Positions 45,339-57,064 of a stretch of 64,000 nucleotides of DNA are shown here, piece by piece. The notes beneath the pieces are model-generated. The model had not been told where the DNA came from. It saw only the letters and a program-made list of their open reading frames with translations, and made no database searches. The stretch is taken from assembly GCA_964291285.2 (NCBI GenBank), contig OZ219786.1, positions 992,001 through 1,056,000 of the forward strand, given 5' to 3'. This DNA comes from Alphaproteobacteria bacterium. Its GTDB lineage: Bacteria; Pseudomonadota; Alphaproteobacteria; Bin95. The translations under genes were made by a program, and so were the position numbers. Numbering within the stretch: the first letter of the stretch is position 1; the number at the start of each line of letters is the position of its first letter.

Positions 45339-46646
45339 TTAGAACTTGGATGCCTCGCTCGCGCTGCTTACCACGGAATTGAGATTTCCAGCGTCACTCG
45401 GTGATGCGCTAGATTGTTTGGATCGGGGTTTCGGGCCACGTCCTGCACCCGGATGAGGATCATAATGGCCCACGAGTGCCATGTACTCAGCTGCTATAGG
45501 CTGAGGGGGCGTGGGCGCAGGCACGAACTCCGAACGAGCAATCGCAAGCGCGGGATTACCACGAATTTTCGTCCCGGAGAGTTGTGCCTTAATTGACCGG
45601 CCGAGAATCTCCGCGAGAAGAGGAGGAGTAGCATTACCGGCTTGCCGCACTTGTTCTCGGTAAGTTCCGTCAAGTTTCCAGAAACTCGGAAAAGTTTGTA
45701 GCCGAAGAATCTCTTCAGGTGCTAGAGGTCGATTGTTCCAATGAAAAGGACCTGTCGCCGGGCCGGGGTTCGCCGGCACCGTCCAAGCGGGCTCAGCCTT
45801 TGCAAGCTTGAGAAGGAATGACCAGAATCGACGTCGATACCCGAAAAGCGGCGGTCCTTTCCCTCGTTCAGTGAAAAACTGATAATTCTGACCTTCGGGT
45901 ATCGACGGAAGCAAACCTGCAAATCGTCCGCTCGAAGCTGGCGGCGTCGCCGGGCACATGTCGTGAAGCGCATCCCAAGCCCGTACTGGATAATCACGAT
46001 GTGTCGTGGCAGGCCATACGGGAATTGCCCCGTTGCGAAACGCAATAATTATTGCGCGCCTGCGTCGCTGTGGAACTCCGAACTCTGCAGCGTTGAGTAT
46101 CCTACAAACTAGCTTATAACGTGTACCGCTTTGACAATTAATGTCGGCAAGGCGCTCTTCTAGAATCGGCAGCGCTGAACGACTGCCCTTCACGAACCCT
46201 GGCACATTCTCGATCAAGATCGCATGGGGGAGCAGCCGCTCTACCAGTGTCAGCAAGCTGTGGAGGGTCCCTGCCCGATGATCGTTGAGCCCGAGAGCAC
46301 CGGTCTGGGACCACTGAGCCGCGTTCGAGAAGGGTTGACAGGGCGGTCCAGCAGCGAGCAACGCAAGTTCCCCCTCGGCGATTCCAAGGTCTCTTGGGAG
46401 CAGATTACTTGCAACTTCGTTGATATCGTGAGGTTTCAGATACTTTCGCCTAGGGCGATTGAGCGCTAGGGACTGCCGCGCTGCTGTATCGTTTTCGATT
46501 CCTCCAATGATACTGAACCCCGCGTGTTCCAAGCCAAGGTCCAGCCCACCGATTCCAGAGAATGCTGACAGGCAGAGAAGCTGCCCGTTGGCAATGCCCT
46601 GTTGCCTGTGGCCCCTCACCATCCACCCCTGCCGAGACTCGCGCAT
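45339..46646 (-). CDS. DNA (cytosine-5)-methyltransferase
   Basis: FSGIGG (I), GPPCQPFS (IV), ENVPG (VI), PQRRRR (VIII), RLQTFP (IX), GNATPP (X); start may lie slightly downstream. Confidence 0.95.
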   Translation of the reverse strand: MRESRQGWMVRGHRQQGIANGQLLCLSAFSGIGGLDLGLEHAGFSIIGGIENDTAARQSLALNRPRRKYLKPHDINEVASNLLPRDLGIAEGELALLAAGPPCQPFSNAAQWSQTGALGLNDHRAGTLHSLLTLVERLLPHAILIENVPGFVKGSRSALPILEERLADINCQSGTRYKLVCRILNAAEFGVPQRRRRAIIIAFRNGAIPVWPATTHRDYPVRAWDALHDMCPATPPASSGRFAGLLPSIPEGQNYQFFTERGKGPPLFGYRRRFWSFLLKLAKAEPAWTVPANPGPATGPFHWNNRPLAPEEILRLQTFPSFWKLDGTYREQVRQAGNATPPLLAEILGRSIKAQLSGTKIRGNPALAIARSEFVPAPTPPQPIAAEYMALVGHYDPHPGAGRGPKPRSKQSSASPSDAGNLNSVVSSASEASKF

Positions 46647-46881
46647 GATTCGACCATTCTACTGATACCAAGAGGCACGACCAGCATAAGCTAGCAGCTT
46701 GAGACTCGCTCTTGGGGCATATCGGATACAAGTCAAGGTTACGCCTCGAAGGTCATGGTTCTGAGAAGGCTTGGGGGTCGCTTCACACTACCATAGTTGC
46801 TGATGGCCGGGGACGATGTCCTAGCAGGGATACCAAACTCGGAACACGACATAATTGTTGCCCCCTGTTCGACGGCTGGTG

Positions 46882-47832
46882 CTAGCCCGCGAGCGGCTCC
46901 ACATCCGCCCCAATCATGGCTTGGATTAGATCCCGCTCGTTAGCGCCAATTTCGTATTTGAACCCCACAAGGCGAAGTCTATCCAAAACGATAGCACCAC
47001 TCTTGGTTGTCAAGAATTCCGTCGTCGGACGCTCGACATGATGGGGTACGGCGAGAAATGGCGACGGTGGAACCCTGGTACCCGTGAAAAGCCTCCATTG
47101 ATCTTGGCTAGGTTCGTTGATTTTGTCCATCCAACTGTCGCTACGACCCACCGTGACTTGGCCGATGAATCCCCAAGTGCCGGGACGCAGTTCCTCTTCC
47201 CAACCGATGTGGCAAAGAATGTCAACTCCTTCGTCATGGGCATTTACACGTCGTGCCGCTGCATTCGGGGCTGCCTTGAGACCAACTTTTTCGCAGGCGA
47301 TTCGCAAGGCGTCTTCAAAAGAACTACCTTTGCGGCGGTGCATAGCTATCCCAGCAGACAGCAAGCCACGACCTTGTAGTACCTTTAATACGATTTGCTC
47401 GAACATCTCGACCGGCCGATGTATCGAATTCAGGCCAAATGCGTGTGTGATGGTCAGGGCGAGAACCGCCGCGTATGCGCTCGCTTCAAGGTCAACGCCG
47501 CACTCAAGTGTGATTGCGTCATTCGTGATCTCGAAAGGATAGCGTTCCGCAAGTACCGCACGACGCTCACCAATCTGCCGAAACACAACTGAGGCCGCTT
47601 CGTGGGCCTTATCCTGATGCTCAGACAAATGTCTCGAATCACCATCAAGGTAATCACCTTCTGGCAATTGAATTAGCTCAAGATCCCAGTCAGCATCAGC
47701 CAAAAAATCGGCGAGAGTTGCCCGCTTCACCGGCTTTCCCTTCAGCGCTAGAAGCTCGACATAGTCCGCCAGTAGCGAAGCTCGCGCATATGGACCATAG
47801 GCGTTAGGTTCAGGCGTCCCGATCACGCTCAT
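46882..47832 (-). CDS. Hypothetical protein, possible PD-(D/E)xK-like nuclease
   Basis: FEQ...HDEGVDIL...GQVTVG...W..K pattern resembles restriction-endonuclease folds; overlaps the upstream gene by 23 bp. Confidence 0.55.
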   Translation of the reverse strand: MSVIGTPEPNAYGPYARASLLADYVELLALKGKPVKRATLADFLADADWDLELIQLPEGDYLDGDSRHLSEHQDKAHEAASVVFRQIGERRAVLAERYPFEITNDAITLECGVDLEASAYAAVLALTITHAFGLNSIHRPVEMFEQIVLKVLQGRGLLSAGIAMHRRKGSSFEDALRIACEKVGLKAAPNAAARRVNAHDEGVDILCHIGWEEELRPGTWGFIGQVTVGRSDSWMDKINEPSQDQWRLFTGTRVPPSPFLAVPHHVERPTTEFLTTKSGAIVLDRLRLVGFKYEIGANERDLIQAMIGADVEPLAG

Positions 47833-48925
47833 CTATCCCGTCTTTAACGATAGCTCGCGCAGAGCGGACCATACGTGACAACTCTTCCATAGCCTGAAAT
47901 AGACTGCTCGACATATCGACGGCTTCTGCTCGCTGAAGGGTCTCCAAGAACAATGCCAAGCTCTTGACAAGCCGCTGAGCGCGCGACTCCAGATCTAGCT
48001 CTTCGACAACCTGTCTTGCTAGACTAAGGTCAGCTGTCCCACGCAGTGTTGTGCGCGCTCGTTCGTTTGCAAGGACTCGTCCGTAGATTGTGACGTCTCG
48101 TGAATCGCCCAACACAGCTCGGCTTCGCTCTGCGGTGCCCCCCAAATCTCCAAGCACTTCTGCCAACTTTTCTCGGTTGATCCCTTCTAATGCTTGTTCG
48201 ATTTCCTGATATGTTCTTGCTCGGCTGAGCTCGACATAATTCCTAATGTCAGCGGAGTTCATGCAACGCAACCAGACTCCGAACCGTTGATCTTGAACAT
48301 AAGTGACGCTTATGCCAAACTCCTCCCGAGCGTAGAGGAGGATACGGATCGCAAGATAAGGATTCCTGACCCCTTGGGCATTACTGCCAACCCGCCGGCC
48401 GAGCTCTCGAAAGGGATCAGTAAATCCCTCGCTTACGAGACGATGGACCCCGGCAAGGATGTAGCGGGCCTTTGCCTCCGGCGGCCATGTTTTCAGTCCG
48501 CCGATATGCCTGAATCCGATATATGCACTTATCTGGTTACGGTTCGCTACAACGATGCAAGGGATCTCTCGGAGCTGTTCTAGGCGTTCCGGCGACAGCT
48601 CAAGGCCGACAAAATCAATGTCGTCAGCTTCCGGAGTTCCATGTAGTATCATGAGCGCCGCCAGTCGTCGATTTCCCTCGACGACTGTATATGTGTCCTC
48701 TTCGCCTTCCCGGACCACCAAAAGCGGCTCTTGCGGAAAGAAGCCGTTGTCTTGGTATGAGTACGCAAGCTCCTCAAGGGCCCCCTGATTATAGAGATAC
48801 CTTAGAATTTCGGACTGTGGCTGTCCGTGAAGCTGTTCTGGAAGCCGCGGATTCTCTTTATCGAGAATTAGGCTGTTTATGGGGAACCACTCAGTAGTTC
48901 GTTCTCTCGGGTCCGTGGCACTCAT
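47810..48925 (-). CDS. ParB/Srx N-terminal domain protein
   Basis: LILDKENPRL, EPLLVV, VVEGNRRLAAL arginine patch. Confidence 0.82.
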   Translation of the reverse strand: MSATDPRERTTEWFPINSLILDKENPRLPEQLHGQPQSEILRYLYNQGALEELAYSYQDNGFFPQEPLLVVREGEEDTYTVVEGNRRLAALMILHGTPEADDIDFVGLELSPERLEQLREIPCIVVANRNQISAYIGFRHIGGLKTWPPEAKARYILAGVHRLVSEGFTDPFRELGRRVGSNAQGVRNPYLAIRILLYAREEFGISVTYVQDQRFGVWLRCMNSADIRNYVELSRARTYQEIEQALEGINREKLAEVLGDLGGTAERSRAVLGDSRDVTIYGRVLANERARTTLRGTADLSLARQVVEELDLESRAQRLVKSLALFLETLQRAEAVDMSSSLFQAMEELSRMVRSARAIVKDGIDERDRDA

Positions 48926-49110
48926 TGAAAATGTTCCCTTACGAGGCGAGTAGAAACGATGATCCAAGCCAAAAGGCTTAGCCTGAAAAAGCCCAGACCC
49001 AGTAGCGGATCACGTAGCCTCCTATGCACGGCTGGTTGGGCCCAACTTCCAGAAGATTGACCCGCCTGACCTGAACGTCAATGCAGTGAGTGTCTGCAGG
49101 AGCCTTTCCT

Positions 49111-50562
49111 GGTCGTGTCCCCAGGGGTGGTGTAGGAGCTGAAGCTTCCGGTGGTAGCTGTGGGTAAGTGGGCCGCCGCCGCGACCGTCTGGAGTCAGGC
49201 GGCGGCGGGCCACTTACCCACAGCGGAGGCCATCGCGGTGCCGGTTAGGGTTGGGCTGTCACAGTCCACCTGACCGGAGGAGTACCACGATGACCACCAC
49301 CGACATGATGACCCTGCGGGCGCTGTTGGAGAAGAGTTCCGACGCCGACCTGCTTCGCGAGATGATCGGGTTCACGGCCGCGCGTCTGATGGCGCTTGAG
49401 GTTGAGGGCCTTGCGGGCGCCGCGCACGGCGAGCGCTCGCCGGACCGGATCACGCAGCGCAACGGCTACCGGGACCGGGTCTGGGAGACGCGGGCCGGCA
49501 CGGTCGAACTGAAGATCCCGAAGCTGCGCAAGGGGAGCTACTTCCCGGGCTTCCTTGAACCGCGGCGGATGGCGGAGAAGGCGCTGACGGCGGTGATCCA
49601 GGAGGCCTACATCAAGGGCGTATCGACCCGCTCGGTGGACGACCTGGTGCAGGCGATGGGCATGTCGGGCATCTCCAAGAGCCAGGTGTCGCGGCTGTGC
49701 GGCGAGATCGACGACAAGATCCGCGACTTCCTCGACCGGCCGCTGGAGGGCGACTGGCCGTATCTCTGGCTTGACGCGACCTATGTGAAGATGCGCGAGG
49801 CCGGGCGCGTCGTCTCGGTCGCGGTCACCATCGCGGTGGCGGTCAACGATCAGGGCCGGCGCGAGGTGCTCGGCATGGCGATCGGCGCGTCCGAGGCCGA
49901 GACCTTCTGGACCGACTTCCTGCGCTCGCTCGCCCGCCGCGGCCTGCGCGGCGTCAAGCTGGTGATCTCCGACGACCACAAGGGCCTGAAGGCCGCCGCC
50001 ACCCGCATCTTCGGCGCCACCTGGCAGAGATGCCGCGTCCACTTCATGCGCAACCTGCTCGCCCATGCCGGCAAGCAGGGCCGGCGCGTCGTCTCCGCCT
50101 TCGTCACTACCGCCTTCGCCCAGGAGGATGCAGACAGCGCCTCCGCCCAGTGGCGCCAGGTCGCCGACCAGCTCAGGCCCAAGGCGCCAAAGCTCGCCGC
50201 CATCATGGACGAGGCCGAGCACGATGTTCTCGCCTACATGACCTTCCCGGCCGCGCACCGCGCCAAGCTGCACTCGACAAACCCGCTCGAACGCCTCCAC
50301 GGCGAGATCAAGCGGCGCACAAACACCGTCGGCATCTTCCCCAACGAGGACGCCATCACCCGGCTGATCGGCGCAATCCTGCTCGAGCAGAACGATGAAT
50401 GGGCAGTCCAGAGAGCCAGATACATGACGCTGGAATCCATCGCTCCCGTGAGCGACAATACAACCGTCAAGTTGCCCGCCGTGGCAGCCTGAGCGTTCCG
50501 GCCCTACCCGCCGGACACCGCTACGGACGCCAGGCTCTTACACCACCCGCGGGGGCACGATC
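49111..50562 (+). mobile_element. IS256 family element, copy 2 (1452 bp, inverted relative to copy 1)
   Basis: Same ends and identical translated transposase; 8-bp TSD CCTTTCCT at 49103-49110 and 50563-50570. Confidence 0.95.
49290..50492 (+). CDS. IS256 family transposase
   Basis: Same protein as copy 1; GGAGG RBS upstream of ATG 49290. Confidence 0.96.
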
Positions 50563-50875
50563 CCTTTCCTTAGCCCTAGAAACTCCAAACAGGTCAACGC
50601 GTTGCCGCACTACGCAGCGTCGAATCTGCCTACTCAACGACACTTCCGCCCCCCTGCTTTCCCGATGCCAGACAATAATGCCGCTCATCGTGCTTTTTCG
50701 TCAACGCCCGACGCCACAGGATGGCCGCGTGCCAGCATCAGGAAACAAGTCTCGATATCTCTCTTAGTGCTTTGTCAGGTGCAGAGCCACGCGAGGACGG
50801 GGCGGCTGGACGAGGCAGGACAGGCTCCCTACTTTCGATAGCTTCGGGACGACAGCCGTCGAAGGAGGGAGCGCC

Positions 50876-51142
50876 ATGGAAGCCGAGCCCAGGGAGCGAC
50901 TGCATCAGCTGGTGGACGCGCTTCCCACCGGCGAACTCCCGGTCGCCGAGCGCTATCTCGAATTCCTGTCCGGGGTCGGGCATCCGTTCGTTCGCGCGCT
51001 CTTTACCGCCCCCGAGGCTGACGAGCCGCTGAGCCACGGGGACCGCGACGCCCTTGAGGAGGGACGCCGCGCCCTTGACGCCGGCGATACCGTCTCCGAT
51101 CGCGAGTTGCGCAGCCGGGCCTGCCAAGCCGCCCGCCCGTAA
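50876..51142 (+). CDS. Small antitoxin-like protein without partner toxin
   Basis: Strong RBS AAGGAGG; RERLHQLVDALP...DEPLS..DRDALEEGRR...G pattern typical of RelE/ParE-associated antitoxins. Confidence 0.5.
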   Translation: MEAEPRERLHQLVDALPTGELPVAERYLEFLSGVGHPFVRALFTAPEADEPLSHGDRDALEEGRRALDAGDTVSDRELRSRACQAARP

Positions 51143-51151
51143 GGCGCGCCG

Positions 51152-51418
51152 CTATTCGCCCGCTTCGGGCGCCGGCTCCCTGCGGCGTATCGAGCCTTCA
51201 AGCAGCCCCTCCACCCGCGCCACACGGTCGGAAAGGCCGCGCAGGTCCGTCGAAACGCGCGCCGAAAGCTCGCTCATATCCTTTGCCAGGCGCTCGGAAA
51301 GGTCCCTGTTGTCCTTCGCCGCGCGCTCGGAGAGGCTGCGCATGTCCCGGTGGATGGTCCACAGGAAACCGATCACGCCGAGCATGAGCCCCGCCAGGAT
51401 GTAAACGCCTTCGTCCAT
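51152..51418 (-). CDS. Small membrane-anchored coiled-coil protein with 11-residue repeats
   Basis: TM helix then DMRSLSERAAK/DNRDLSERLAK/DMSELSARVST/DLRGLSDRVAR. Confidence 0.65.
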   Translation of the reverse strand: MDEGVYILAGLMLGVIGFLWTIHRDMRSLSERAAKDNRDLSERLAKDMSELSARVSTDLRGLSDRVARVEGLLEGSIRRREPAPEAGE

Positions 51419-51469
51419 GGTCCCACCGTACCCGCCCTGCGGCTCCCCACGCAAGCTCCGGCCCCCCGG

Positions 51470-53124
<1,655 letters not shown>

Positions 53125-53261
53125 CCGACAACACAGTCGCTCTCCCGTGCATCGGCGGGGGCTCCGGTCGCCGGCCCTCACGCCTTCGGATTGGGGATTA
53201 TCCGTTTGACTAAATATCAGCCCGTCTCCTAGCCTGTGCTCTTCACAGCGGGAGATCAAGC

Positions 53262-54642
53262 ATGGCGAGGAAATCTGATAGGGTAGAAGGCAGGCGACGC
53301 AGCGGCGACGCAGCGGCGACGCAGCGGCGACGCAGCGGCGACGCAGCGGCGACGCAGCGGCGACGCAGCGGCGACGCAGGAAGCCAACTGGCGCAACCGC
53401 ACCATCTGGACGCGCGACAATCTCCATGTCCTGAGAGGCATGAACAGCGCCACGGTTGATCTCATCTATCTCGACCCGCCCTTCAACTCCAACCGCACCT
53501 ATAGCGCACCCATAGGCTCGGAGGCGGCCGGGGCTGCCTTCAAGGACTCATGGACCTTCGACGACGCGGACCGCGTCTATCTGGCACTGCTGCAAGAGCG
53601 TGACCCGACGACTTTCGCCATAATCGACGCGGCCCGGCTGGCGCACGGGCGCGGCATGGCGGCCTATCTCGGCATGATGGCGCAACGCCTCGTCGAAATG
53701 CGGCGTGTCCTGAAGCCGACCGGCAGCATCTATCTGCATTGTGACCCGTTCGCGTCGCATTATCTCAAGATGCTCATGGACGCGATTTTCGGACGCCTTA
53801 ATCACCGGAACGAGATTATCTGGTGCTATACTGGCCCCGGCTCACCGCATATGCGCCAGTTCAACCGAAAGCACGATACAATCCACTGGTATTCAGTCGG
53901 CGAGACATGGACCTTCAATGCCGACGCCGTGCGTATTCAGCACCATGGCAAGACCAAGGCGAATTTCAAAGACGGTTTGCGCGGTTCTGGATTTATCGAG
54001 GGCGAATATGGGCTGACGGACGGCAAAGTCCCTGAAACATGGTGGCCGCAAGAGAAAGGAAATGGACTCGCCATAGCGCCCCGCCAAAAGGCGCAATATG
54101 TCGGCTATCCGACGCAGAAGCCGCTTGCCCTTCTGGACCGCATCATCAAGGCGTCGAGTAACGAGGGCGATGTCGTGCTGGACCCATTTTGCGGTTGCGC
54201 GACGGCCGCCGTGGCGGCGGAGCGGCTACAGCGCCAGTGGATCGGCATCGACATTTCCGCGAAGGCGGCCGAGCTCGTCACGACGCGCCTGCAAGGCATC
54301 CTCGACGAAATCCCGCTCTACAAGACCGGCGATGTTGTCCACAGGACGGACCAGCCGGGCCGCACGGACCTGGGAGACCTTCCCCACTACCGGACGCACC
54401 TGGACTTGCTCTACGGCCAGCAGGAAGGCTTTTGCGGCGGTTGCGGGGAGCATTTCCGCAAGCGCAATCTGACGGTGGACCATATCGTCCCGCAAGCGCA
54501 TGGCGGGACCGACCACCTTGAGAACCTTTGGCTGCTGTGCGGCGCCTGCAATTCGTCGAAGGGAACGCGCTCGCAAGAGCAATTCCTGAAAGAGCGTATG
54601 CAGAAGCGCGCCGCCCTGTTCCCGTGGCTGATAGAGGCGTGA
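53262..54642 (+). CDS. Beta-class N4/N6 DNA methyltransferase fused to C-terminal HNH endonuclease; out of frame at the 11-bp repeat
   Basis: NRTIWTRDNLHVLRGM, LDPPF (IV), YPTQKP, LDPFCGCAT (I), CGGC...VDHIVP..HGG...NL..LCGACNSSK (HNH); main ORF 53440-54642. Confidence 0.88.
53293..53379 (+). repeat. 11-bp tandem repeat (GGCGACGCAGC) x7 plus 10/11 of an eighth unit
   Basis: Direct count; lies 31 nt after ATG 53262 in the 5' coding region of the MTase-HNH gene. Confidence 0.95.
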
Positions 54643-55611
54643 CTAGTATGGCCGCGCCCCGCTCGCCAGCCCGTTCTCGGCAATCAGCCGGGCGTAGGTC
54701 AGGCGCTTCCCGACCATGCCGGCCGCCAGTCCCGCCATTTGTGCCAGCGTCCCGGCTTCGCGGATGTTGTGCCGCCCGGCGAACTCCGCGATGTAGCGGT
54801 GAAGGTGCTTCGGCGAGAACTTGTGATAGACGCCCTTGTGCGCCCGCTTCAACATGGCCCAGAAGCTCTCGATCCCGTTGGTATGCGCCTGCTGGCGGAC
54901 ATACTCGCCAGCGGAGTGATTGACCGCTTCATGCTGAAACCACACTTGCAGCGCCCGATAGACCGTCGCCTCGTCCGAATAGACCGTCGTGCCGATGCGG
55001 GCGTTGTGAGCGGCGAAGCCTGCCAGCGACGGCGCGTCCGCGTGCTGGACATGGCGGGCGCGAACCTGCTTCGTGCCCCGGTCCTTCACGCCAACGACAA
55101 TGTCCTTGCCGACAGCGCCGCGACCCTCAAGGCTCTCCCGCTTCGCCTTGTGCATGTTCTTGCGCAGCCCGCCCAGATAGACCTCGTCCACCTCTACCGG
55201 CCCGTCCATGGGCGGCTCGTCGTCGCGCTTGAAGGCTTCGCGGATGCGCTGGAGCATGAACCATGCGGTTGCCTGCCGGACGCCTATGTCCCGGCTCAGC
55301 TTCACGCTGGAGACGCCCTTGAGCGAAGTCAGGTGCAGGTAGATCGCCCAAACCCACTTGCGGAACGAGAGCTTGGACCGCTCCATGACGGTGCCGATGC
55401 GGACGCTGAAATGCCGCTTGCAGCCGGGGCAGTAGTAGGGCATCGGCGGGTTGCCGGTGCATTCAATCGTCTCGGTATGGCCGCAGCGCGGGCAATGGCG
55501 ACCGTTCGGCCAGACCTTCGCCTCAAACCATTCGCGGGCGCTTTCCTCGGTCGGGAACATCTCTCCCAACTCCATGATGGTCACGCCTTCGCGGTAGTGC
55601 TTGCCAGCCAT
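54643..55611 (-). CDS. IS1595/ISXO2-like DDE transposase with zinc ribbon
   Basis: CPRC...CPGC, VEVDEVYLGG, YSDE, HTNGIESFW, KHLHRY. Confidence 0.95.
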   Translation of the reverse strand: MAGKHYREGVTIMELGEMFPTEESAREWFEAKVWPNGRHCPRCGHTETIECTGNPPMPYYCPGCKRHFSVRIGTVMERSKLSFRKWVWAIYLHLTSLKGVSSVKLSRDIGVRQATAWFMLQRIREAFKRDDEPPMDGPVEVDEVYLGGLRKNMHKAKRESLEGRGAVGKDIVVGVKDRGTKQVRARHVQHADAPSLAGFAAHNARIGTTVYSDEATVYRALQVWFQHEAVNHSAGEYVRQQAHTNGIESFWAMLKRAHKGVYHKFSPKHLHRYIAEFAGRHNIREAGTLAQMAGLAAGMVGKRLTYARLIAENGLASGARPY

Positions 55612-55683
55612 GACGGCCTCCGTTCCGACTGCTTGAGTCAGAATATGGGGACTCGCCGTCATTTAGTCAAGCGGATAATCCCC

Positions 55684-57064
55684 CAGTAATGCGCGCCAGA
55701 ACCGTATCCGGCCCGACGATCCGGGCGACATAGCTCAGGCCGAAGCCCGACGAGACCGTGCCAGGCGTCAGCGACACCGACTCGCGTCCTTCGCCCAGCG
55801 TCGTGCTGATCTCCTTGAGATAGGCTCGATCCAACAGGTCGTAGAACTGCGACGGTCTACCTGCGAGGCTGGCAAGCTCGAACGACTTGACCCGCCAGAC
55901 CTTGCCGACGCTGTTCATCGCATCGACCGTTGCCTGCAGGCTCGAACTATTCCGGAAGGACGGCGTGACTACCGACACGCCGCCCCCGGAGATCACGACG
56001 TCTACCGACGAACCGAACAGCTTCGGCAATACGCCCGACAGTCCGATCTCGAAATCATGCGCCCGGTCGAACTGCACCGAATAAAGGTAGATCGAGAGCG
56101 ACACCGGCCGCAGCGTGTGCCGGTCCAGATGCTGCAGATAGTCCCGGACTCTGGCAACCGCCCTCGGAGCGCCCCGCACGCTTACCGTCCCGGACGACTC
56201 CGATACCAGCACCTCGGCGCCATCCCCGGCCGCGTCGCAAACGAGATCGGTAATCTCCTCCCACGGCTTGTATTCCATGGAAGCGTCCAGCGACTGCTTC
56301 GTGCCCCCCGAAGTCTCCTCGCCCGCCTCGGCCTCCGTCGACACCTTCACATCGTATTTTTGCGTTCCGACCAGTGCATTGATGCTGAAGGTGCGGCTCT
56401 CGGAGCGCACGATGTCGATCGCCCCTGAAACCTCGTCGTATCGCCAGAACCAGCCCAACTCCCCGGTCCACACTTCAAGCAGACGATCCAATGGCCCCGT
56501 CCACACGCCGCTGTCCGGCACCAGCTCGTCCGTCAGCGATTGCATCCATTCGGAGCTCTCGCCCGACCGCCGCAACGCAGCACTTTCGCAAGAGCCGTGG
56601 CCTTCCGCCCTCGGCTTGTCTTCCTCTCCGACCCACCGGACAACCAGCCCGGAGGCTACAGCGATCCGACGCCGCAACACCTCCGTAGCCTCCTCCGGAG
56701 ACACCTCTGGAGACACCAAGTCACCCACCGGCACAGTCACGCCGACTTCGCTGACCAGATCCTCGGGTAGTGGTGCCGCTTCGGTCTGCACCGCCGACAG
56801 CGCGAGATAAGGCGCCGCAGACTCCCGAAGCGACCGAAAGCCGGAACGGTCGGGACCAGAGGGCCGCAGCTCCCTTACTTTCTGCTCGATGGCTGCCTTG
56901 TTTTCCGGGTCCCCCTCAGACTCCGCCCAGCCGCAGCCTGCCACCCACCAGCACGCCGCAAGAAGCGCAGCAAACTCAATTCCGCGACGCCCACAAATCC
57001 CGCCACCGAATGACAGACTGTTGACAACTCTCGGCGAATCCAACAGTACCTCTCCCATGTCCAC
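55684..57064 (-). pseudogene. PilN/BfpB-like type IVB pilus secretin fragment, 3' end cut by IS1595
   Basis: Signal-like N-terminus, WTGPLDRLL, SESSGTVSV, YLKEISTT...LTPGTVSSGF; stop codon lies inside the IS inverted repeat. Confidence 0.55.

Follow-up and report, generated by a model that had tools for sequence, protein, structure and literature searches.

The locus is occupied by an insertion element of the IS1595 family that carries a single passenger gene, a fused DNA methyltransferase and HNH nuclease (Table 1; positions refer to the window, the whole 64,000-nt stretch of alphaproteobacterial DNA analysed here). The transposase scores 185 bits against NF033547 (cut-off 75) and is convergent with the passenger gene, their stop codons abutting, which agrees with the term "transposon-borne" used in an earlier note on this DNA. 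Within the element, a promoter scanner picked up the mirror site at the right end and nothing on the passenger side, where the boxes were picked out by eye. A secretin-like frame (55667-57064, minus strand) extends into the right end of the element.

Table 1 The IS1595-family element, its flanks and its passenger gene in the window.
Feature	Position	Strand	Basis or remark
Left 8-bp target flank, TTCGGATT	53185-53192	+	differs from right flank CAGTAATG, 55684-55691
IS1595-family element, 2491 bp, one passenger gene	53193-55683		inverted ends; four genomic copies by BLAST
Left terminal inverted repeat, 23 bp	53193-53215	+	22/23 identical to right end
Possible -35 box TTGACT facing passenger gene	53206-53211	+	by eye, inside left terminal inverted repeat
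Possible -10 box TAGCCT	53230-53235	+	by eye
Start codon and leader MARKSDRVEG	53262-53292	+	presumed true N-terminus, from homologous leaders
Perfect GGCGACGCAGC x7.9 array, OFF (+1)	53293-53379	+	TRF; 1.9 units in two other copies
Predicted beta-class N6/N4 DNA methyltransferase with C-terminal Cys4 HNH nuclease, 420 aa from EANW	53380-54642	+	Pfam, fold
Conserved methyltransferase N-terminus (strand 8-11, Asp13, helix 14-20)	53380-53439	+	conservation, model
DPPF motif	53473-53484	+	
Variable central region	about 53740-54100	+	
DPFCGCAT motif	54181-54204	+	
HNH	54433-54570	+	
IS1595 DDE transposase, 322 aa	54643-55611	-	NF033547 above cut-off; PF12762, PF12760; open frame
Right terminal inverted repeat, promoter-like TTGACT-17-CATATT facing transposase	55661-55683	-	promoter scan

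To the left of the element, positions 49113-53124 hold a cluster of mobile pieces, among them an IS256/Mutator transposase with inverted ends (49113-50560), a hairpin with 26-nt arms (49157-49224) and a transposase-like HTH fragment (51470-51982); an IS110 transposase adjoins the element on that side. Farther left, a low-GC block of three genes (45339-48967, minus strand) encodes a C5 cytosine methyltransferase, a 316-aa protein that matches neither Pfam nor PADLOC models, and a ParB-like protein that matches PD-Lambda-5_A and PDC-M38A. This block is a probable defence operon.

The passenger protein matches PF01555 (E 5e-46) and PF01844 (E 5e-14) in Pfam as well as the PADLOC models MTase_II and MTase_III; its motifs run in the order DPPF ... 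FCG and its central region is swapped between homologues. A structure model built from an alignment of 101 sequences (pLDDT 85.8; a single-sequence prediction with pLDDT 38 was not used) matches the fold of the beta-class methyltransferases M.BceJIV, CcrM and M.RsrI. Conservation across the 101 sequences is complete or almost complete for the DPPF and FCG motifs and, in the HNH part, for C352, C355, D367, N382, C387 and N391 (invariant) and H368 and C390 (nearly so), which include the four zinc cysteines. With methyltransferase and endonuclease domains in one chain and the catalytic residues intact, the protein is, judging by its sequence, most likely a single-chain restriction-modification enzyme that would methylate its site in the host and cut unmethylated incoming DNA, with a specificity most likely set by the exchangeable central region. 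There is no solved fused relative among 17 sequence matches, and the literature searched holds no family member with demonstrated activity.

The switch-like feature lies between the start codon and this enzyme. ATG 53262 is preceded by a Shine-Dalgarno-like GGAG (53251-53254, spacing 7 nt) and followed, after its leader, by a perfect tandem array of the 11-bp unit GGCGACGCAGC (87 nt, TRF score 174), the sole long array with a 100% match among 63 TRF rows for the window. The 3' end of the array abuts GAA GCC AAC TGG, with which the conserved methyltransferase N-terminus (EANW) begins. Upstream, the methyltransferase frame runs into TAG 53284-53286, and no ATG, GTG or TTG lies in it from there to 53440; the frame opened at ATG 53262 gives a 65-aa peptide that ends at TGA 53457-53459. 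With 118 nt (31 + 87) before the EANW codon, leader and methyltransferase are fused in frame with 0, 3, 6 or 9 units only, and the unit has no stop codon in any frame. The observation in the earlier note is thereby confirmed; it had described a GGAG-led ATG followed by seven units and a near-complete eighth, an N-terminus stranded upstream of ATG 53440, a fusion restored by the gain of one unit or the loss of two, and a repeat that is stop-free in every frame.

In the host genome (G000, contigs C1 to C5), BLAST finds four copies of the element, at C2:1045193 and C3:1312203 (2491 bp) and at C3:662489-664913 and C3:2119247 (2425 bp). They differ by two SNPs in all, plus array length, with 7.9, 7.9, 1.9 and 1.9 units of GGCGACGCAGC (8, 8, 2 and 2). 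The array is therefore length-mutable within this genome, but the difference is of six units, so that all four copies are OFF and share one phase. The 8-bp target duplications match in two copies; the flanks of the window copy are exchanged with those of the copy at C3:2119247-2121671, which reflects either recombination between copies or an assembly mis-join.

Repeats are found elsewhere in G000. A second methyltransferase-HNH family, 45% identical, has three copies (C3:12448+, 786194-, 1271566-) with poly-C after the start codon, in frame in two and one base shorter, out of frame, in the third; an IS1-like transposase, identified by eye, adjoins it downstream. A different repeated region has ten copies in which ATGAAAGACATGAA is followed by (GAGGCGC)n, n being about 2 to 26 (C1:60409+, 801123+, 828046-; C2:760878-; C3:404692+, 406940-, 1586216+, 1623937+; C5:393296-, 316896-), with only a frame of roughly 25 aa downstream and a -10-like TAGAAT preceding the array on the other strand. 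At C4:57596-57759, (AGCGCCG)x23.4 lies in the 5' end of a long frame, now in frame, which has a signal-peptide-like segment and, by eye, the look of a surface protein; this is likely a 7-nt phase switch.

The family of the passenger protein is large (7506 matches at E<=1e-60 among 8000 scored), and we surveyed its gene starts in the 80 best-matching loci of each of two sets, 505 from genomes and 389 from metagenomes, and in whole-genome searches. Matches that start beyond query residue 13, those with less than 150 nt upstream and exact duplicates were dropped, giving 279 starts plus 39 held out, or 318. Under a fixed rule, which counts an array between the start codon and the conserved N-terminus, 59 of the 318 starts have a leader repeat (54 + 5 held out). 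Another 17 arrays lie upstream of an in-frame start, including the poly-C of L311 and the poly-G of L236, which by eye look like leader repeats but are excluded by the rule; two have no start, and 236 of the 318 starts have no repeat. Among the first-round homologous loci, 9 of 77 have a repeat in the 120 nt that precede the N-terminus; of 4119 control windows from the same loci, 70 have one (Fisher p 1e-5), so that the placement is beyond chance.

Twenty-one of the 59 leader repeats are homopolymers (20 of them poly-C) and 38 are multi-nucleotide loci, which use 19 different units of 2, 4, 5, 7, 8 or 11 nt and come from 13 genomes and one metagenome contig, 22 of them from two genomes. No unit among the 19 has a length divisible by three, but of 15 units in other arrays of the own genome 9 do (Fisher p 1e-4). 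Counted over the only six unit lengths involved, the chance of this avoidance is (2/3)^6 = 0.09. All 19 are free of stop and common start codons, the chance of which is 5e-4 for the first 16 units and 0.04 for stops alone. The 39 held-out loci added three units, none divisible by three and all OFF. By record title the repeat-bearing genes belong to Alphaproteobacteria, Arenicellales, Dehalococcoidia, Bryobacterales and Rhodothermales. IS1595 transposase sequence lies within 1.5 kb of 15 of 33 multi-nucleotide loci; for repeat-free loci the count is 53 of 210. The carrier is therefore common, not obligatory. In a tree made by a quick method, with many open forks and with 11 identical and 30 short rows left out, repeat-bearing genes are scattered among repeat-free ones, and a single origin of the repeats is rejected on this ground; the origins are uncountable because leaders exchange (see below). 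The leaders of L028, L425 and L432 share a SKLEK/PKLNEG motif and have no long array. L028 is in frame and the other two are out of frame with short imperfect duplications, possibly stages in the birth or death of an array. Many record titles among the relatives name lineages that are known as sponge symbionts. Small shares in sequencing runs labelled sponge or coral-reef metagenome belong to relatives and were rejected as evidence for the habitat of the present genome.

Multi-nucleotide arrays are seldom in frame: 2 of 38 are ON (L284 and L247) versus 7 of 20 poly-C tracts (Fisher p 0.006). When each distinct state is counted once, the ON share is 2 of 27 (p 0.002, tested against one third) and, with at least three units, 2 of 21 (p 0.013); kinship makes all three p values optimistic. 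In-frame alleles are also present as proteins with repeat-encoded peptides. P0005, 77% identical in alignment A1, reads MARKSSGLERG-QSGSPAVR-EEASRNW, from a leader like that of the window gene through three 8-mer units into the N-terminus, and P0013 and P0027 read through 7-mer arrays, the units of all three being deduced from peptide repeats rather than from DNA. A change of phase is seen in a relative, where the CAGTC array counts 19.8, 18.8 and 23.2 units in three gene copies whose coding sequences are identical, which makes two phases. An ON allele of the 11-mer is found neither in the four own-genome copies nor among the homologues surveyed. The ON state is not lethal as such, because several ON genes keep an intact HNH (L247, L082, L084, L252, L363). 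The rule that ON is lethal unless the nuclease is dead is rejected by at least these five genes; L284 and L436, a second broken ON gene, with poly-C, are the cases that fit it. In L284 (G002:C1:63453, plus strand) a run of five A is shortened to four just before HNH, leaving a methylase without nuclease, which may be a sequencing error.

We propose that the array puts a single-chain restriction-modification gene under slipped-strand phase variation, OFF being the default; the sequence comparisons make this mechanism probable. Translation would start at ATG 53262 and the array would serve as a translational switch, in which slipped-strand mispairing alters the unit count; three, six or nine units, or none, would join the leader to the methyltransferase-HNH frame, and eight would yield the 65-aa nonsense peptide and leave the enzyme OFF. 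The 5' leader of the family would be a permissive site, where repeats that shift the frame have arisen or been exchanged repeatedly. The OFF bias may reflect a cost of being ON, which could come from cutting of the cell's own DNA, once the gene has switched or entered a new host, or from lost gene inflow; selection for ON, probably by phage, would now and then offset it. In such a mutation-selection balance, fast poly-C tracts would stay near one third ON, and slower long units would be pushed OFF by the cost. The idea that the element arrives silent, put forward in the earlier note, fits this bias. We infer the switching rate, the expression of the ON form, the activity of the nuclease and the cause of the OFF bias. 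Repeat units over 4 nt would probably escape mismatch repair. The host genome has mutS and mutL in open frames, and loss of mismatch repair is rejected as the cause of the arrays.

An array that is nearly always OFF could also be a one-way silencer: a short duplication would have knocked out a costly passenger, the array would since have drifted, and the gene would be decaying. The 36 OFF alleles at 38 multi-nucleotide loci, the OFF state of all four own-genome copies and the further breaks, downstream or by insertions, in some repeat-bearing G002 copies (L225, L230, L266, L227) are all consistent with this. However, OFF genes are no more broken than repeat-free ones, 30 of 33 being of full length versus 148 of 189, and their dN/dS is near 0.1 (0.07-0.15 for the conserved parts; for whole alignments, in which the central region is swapped, about 0.2), even between genes with an identical unit (0.13 for L285/L111, 0.07 for L222/L229); the close paralogue pairs L278/L282 and L084/L088, which are OFF/OFF or ON/OFF, have values near 0.3. 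At the sequence level, then, OFF genes appear to be under purifying selection and to decay no faster than repeat-free genes. A knock-out, moreover, needs no long, perfect, stop-free arrays at one site, and in-frame alleles exist in homologues. We consider one-way silencing unlikely.

Purifying selection despite near-universal OFF would be explained if a low level of full-length enzyme, made from OFF alleles by ribosomal frameshifting or transcriptional slippage within the array, were the normal working state. Purine-rich, Shine-Dalgarno-like runs do precede many arrays, but both phases occur among the 33 OFF genes (20 off by +1 and 13 by +2), and no single programmed shift serves both; one programmed frameshift for all members is rejected for this reason. 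The leader RNA folds no better than shuffled sequences (z -0.67), and a special RNA structure is rejected on that count; the repeat units are GC-rich, a kind that to our knowledge is not among the known slippery sites. Such a rheostat is thus very unlikely.

It could further be asked whether translation begins at ATG 53440, or re-initiates beyond the stop at 53457-53459, at any unit number, the repeat being untranslated or regulatory only. Gene callers do put the start at an internal Met, here and in at least 7 of the top 120 homologues, and the stop lies 17 nt past ATG 53440 in this copy. Against this, the stop is private to this copy, and the product would probably be crippled, because it would lack the first strand, Asp13 and the helix. 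Residues 1-20 have a pLDDT of 94-95 in the model, D13, L15, R19 and G20 are nearly invariant in 101 sequences, and Asp13 aligns with CDCL 45-48 of M.RsrI; the similarly placed Asp8 of M1.HpyAVI binds the purine N6 of AdoMet, though the Asp8 mutant retains reduced activity, as given in an excerpt of PMC5173035. In addition, 70 of the 77 first loci examined have an in-frame start upstream of the N-terminal segment. We regard a start at ATG 53440 as highly improbable. Finally, it is hardly credible that the eight-unit count is an assembly error for an allele with two units or an in-frame number: the contigs of run X1, possibly the source sample and the one run that contains the element, have only the 2425-bp, two-unit form, whose depth is about four times that of the flank (497.5 vs 129), and the exchanged flanks could be a mis-join, but the four sequencing runs examined are all contigs and k-mer contigs collapse an 87-bp array by construction, so that those of X1 cannot resolve eight units, whereas two loci with different flanks in an assembly of five long contigs both have exactly 7.9 units and long arrays recur in other genomes.

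Slipped-strand phase variation, as the earlier note had suggested, is supported in part. It is favoured by the 8, 8, 2 and 2 units of near-identical copies, the frame-changing variation in CAGTC, the in-frame alleles of homologues, the avoidance of units divisible by three and the selection on OFF genes. Among the four copies of this element no change of state is seen, the six-unit difference leaving every copy OFF, and no ON allele of its 11-mer was found.

The leaders themselves appear to be exchanged. In another genome (G002), 15 copies are alike in the 110 nt before an array of GACAGTCC (median identity 94%, minimum 76%), whereas the bodies behind it are only 70% identical in DNA and 57% in the first 130 residues of protein, so that leader and repeat move or homogenise apart from the enzyme. 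These bodies form several clades and end in HNH or T5orf172 domains, and two further repeat-bearing genes of G002 end in Mrr_cat; one of the 15 copies is in frame, the L284 described above. The leader of the window gene is similar to that of a 42%-identical gene whose unit is different, the 96%-identical neighbour of the window gene differs from it in both leader and unit, and a MARKPGKVEQG leader precedes an 8-mer array in a same-genus genome (L241). We therefore offer, tentatively, the further idea that promoter, leader and repeat form a portable cassette grafted just before EANW onto unrelated methylase-nuclease bodies, which would give a library of silent restriction-modification specificities turned on singly; this is possible, although the odds are rather against it. 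If it is right, long units would allow switching to continue in hosts proficient in mismatch repair, and with OFF as the default the element could pass between phyla and leave a naive chromosome uncut.

Repeat switching of restriction-modification methyltransferases is an established mechanism, known from Type III mod genes and from Cj0031, and we compare the present gene with excerpts of the papers that describe these systems. In the Type III survey, 662 of 3805 mod genes have units of 1-9 nt, with units divisible by three scarce, and M.Eco131I, CAGCGAC[n], is a 7-nt switch with mixed lengths in culture (PMC5909438). The long unit is therefore less unusual than the earlier note had held. As in mod genes, the repeat sits at the 5' end of a beta-class methyltransferase coding region, after a Shine-Dalgarno-led start and before the catalytic part, its units are not divisible by three, the central target-recognition region is exchangeable and several switchable genes occur per genome; unlike them, the gene rides an IS1595 element and units go up to 11 nt rather than the 1-9 nt of the survey (PMC5909438). 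In further contrast to mod genes, the nuclease is fused here (HNH; in relatives also T5orf172 or Mrr_cat) and the element, which holds only the fusion and the transposase, lacks a res gene (helicase-nuclease). The hosts are uncultured non-pathogen lineages, and the likeness lies in the design of the switch.

Cj0031 of Campylobacter jejuni contains a poly-G tract. It is a phase-variable Type IIG gene that affects methylation and phage restriction, and it resembles the present one, as read from sequence, in having methyltransferase and endonuclease in one repeat-bearing gene (PMC4889913). The Type IIG plan, with an N-terminal PD-(D/E)xK nuclease and a gamma-class methyltransferase (PMC4081073), differs from the beta-class methyltransferase first, HNH last and long-unit leader repeat seen here. 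Type IIC BtgZI shares the single chain with the methyltransferase first and the nuclease last, but is alpha-class with a PD-(D/E)xK variant where beta-class and HNH are predicted here, and the excerpt of PMC4081073 names no beta-class/HNH Type IIC enzyme. The DDE transposase, the inverted repeats (about 25 bp in tISCpe8 and MTnSag1) and the passenger gene are those of IS1595-family transporter IS (tIS) elements, whose passenger is a resistance gene instead of a restriction-modification-like fusion under a repeat switch (PMC5704250); an 8-bp target duplication is seen with the element here. The system would thus work like a phasevarion-type switch while being neither a Type III mod, for want of res, nor a typical Type IIG enzyme. 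We found no account of the repeats, the IS1595 carrier, the unit turnover or the OFF bias of this family in the open literature; subscription papers and the supplements of PMC5909438 could list members.

The repeat is, on the strength of the comparisons above, a good candidate for a family-wide, mobile and mostly silent phase-variable restriction-modification system. Restriction-modification is the most prevalent defence in one sponge microbiome, where phage sites mutate against it (PMC11410982, excerpt). If our reading is true, it extends repeat-driven phase variation of restriction-modification from the Type I, III and IIG genes of pathogens to a very large single-chain family, spread by insertion sequences through genomes of Pseudomonadota, Chloroflexota, Acidobacteriota and Rhodothermota. 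Because gene callers place the start of OFF alleles at an internal Met and score these alleles as functional defence genes, catalogues of defence in genomes of this kind would list more than is expressed. The many independent units at one site make unit turnover, and the relation of long units to mismatch repair, testable, and the family would likewise offer a test of how a mobile methylase-nuclease establishes itself without killing its host.
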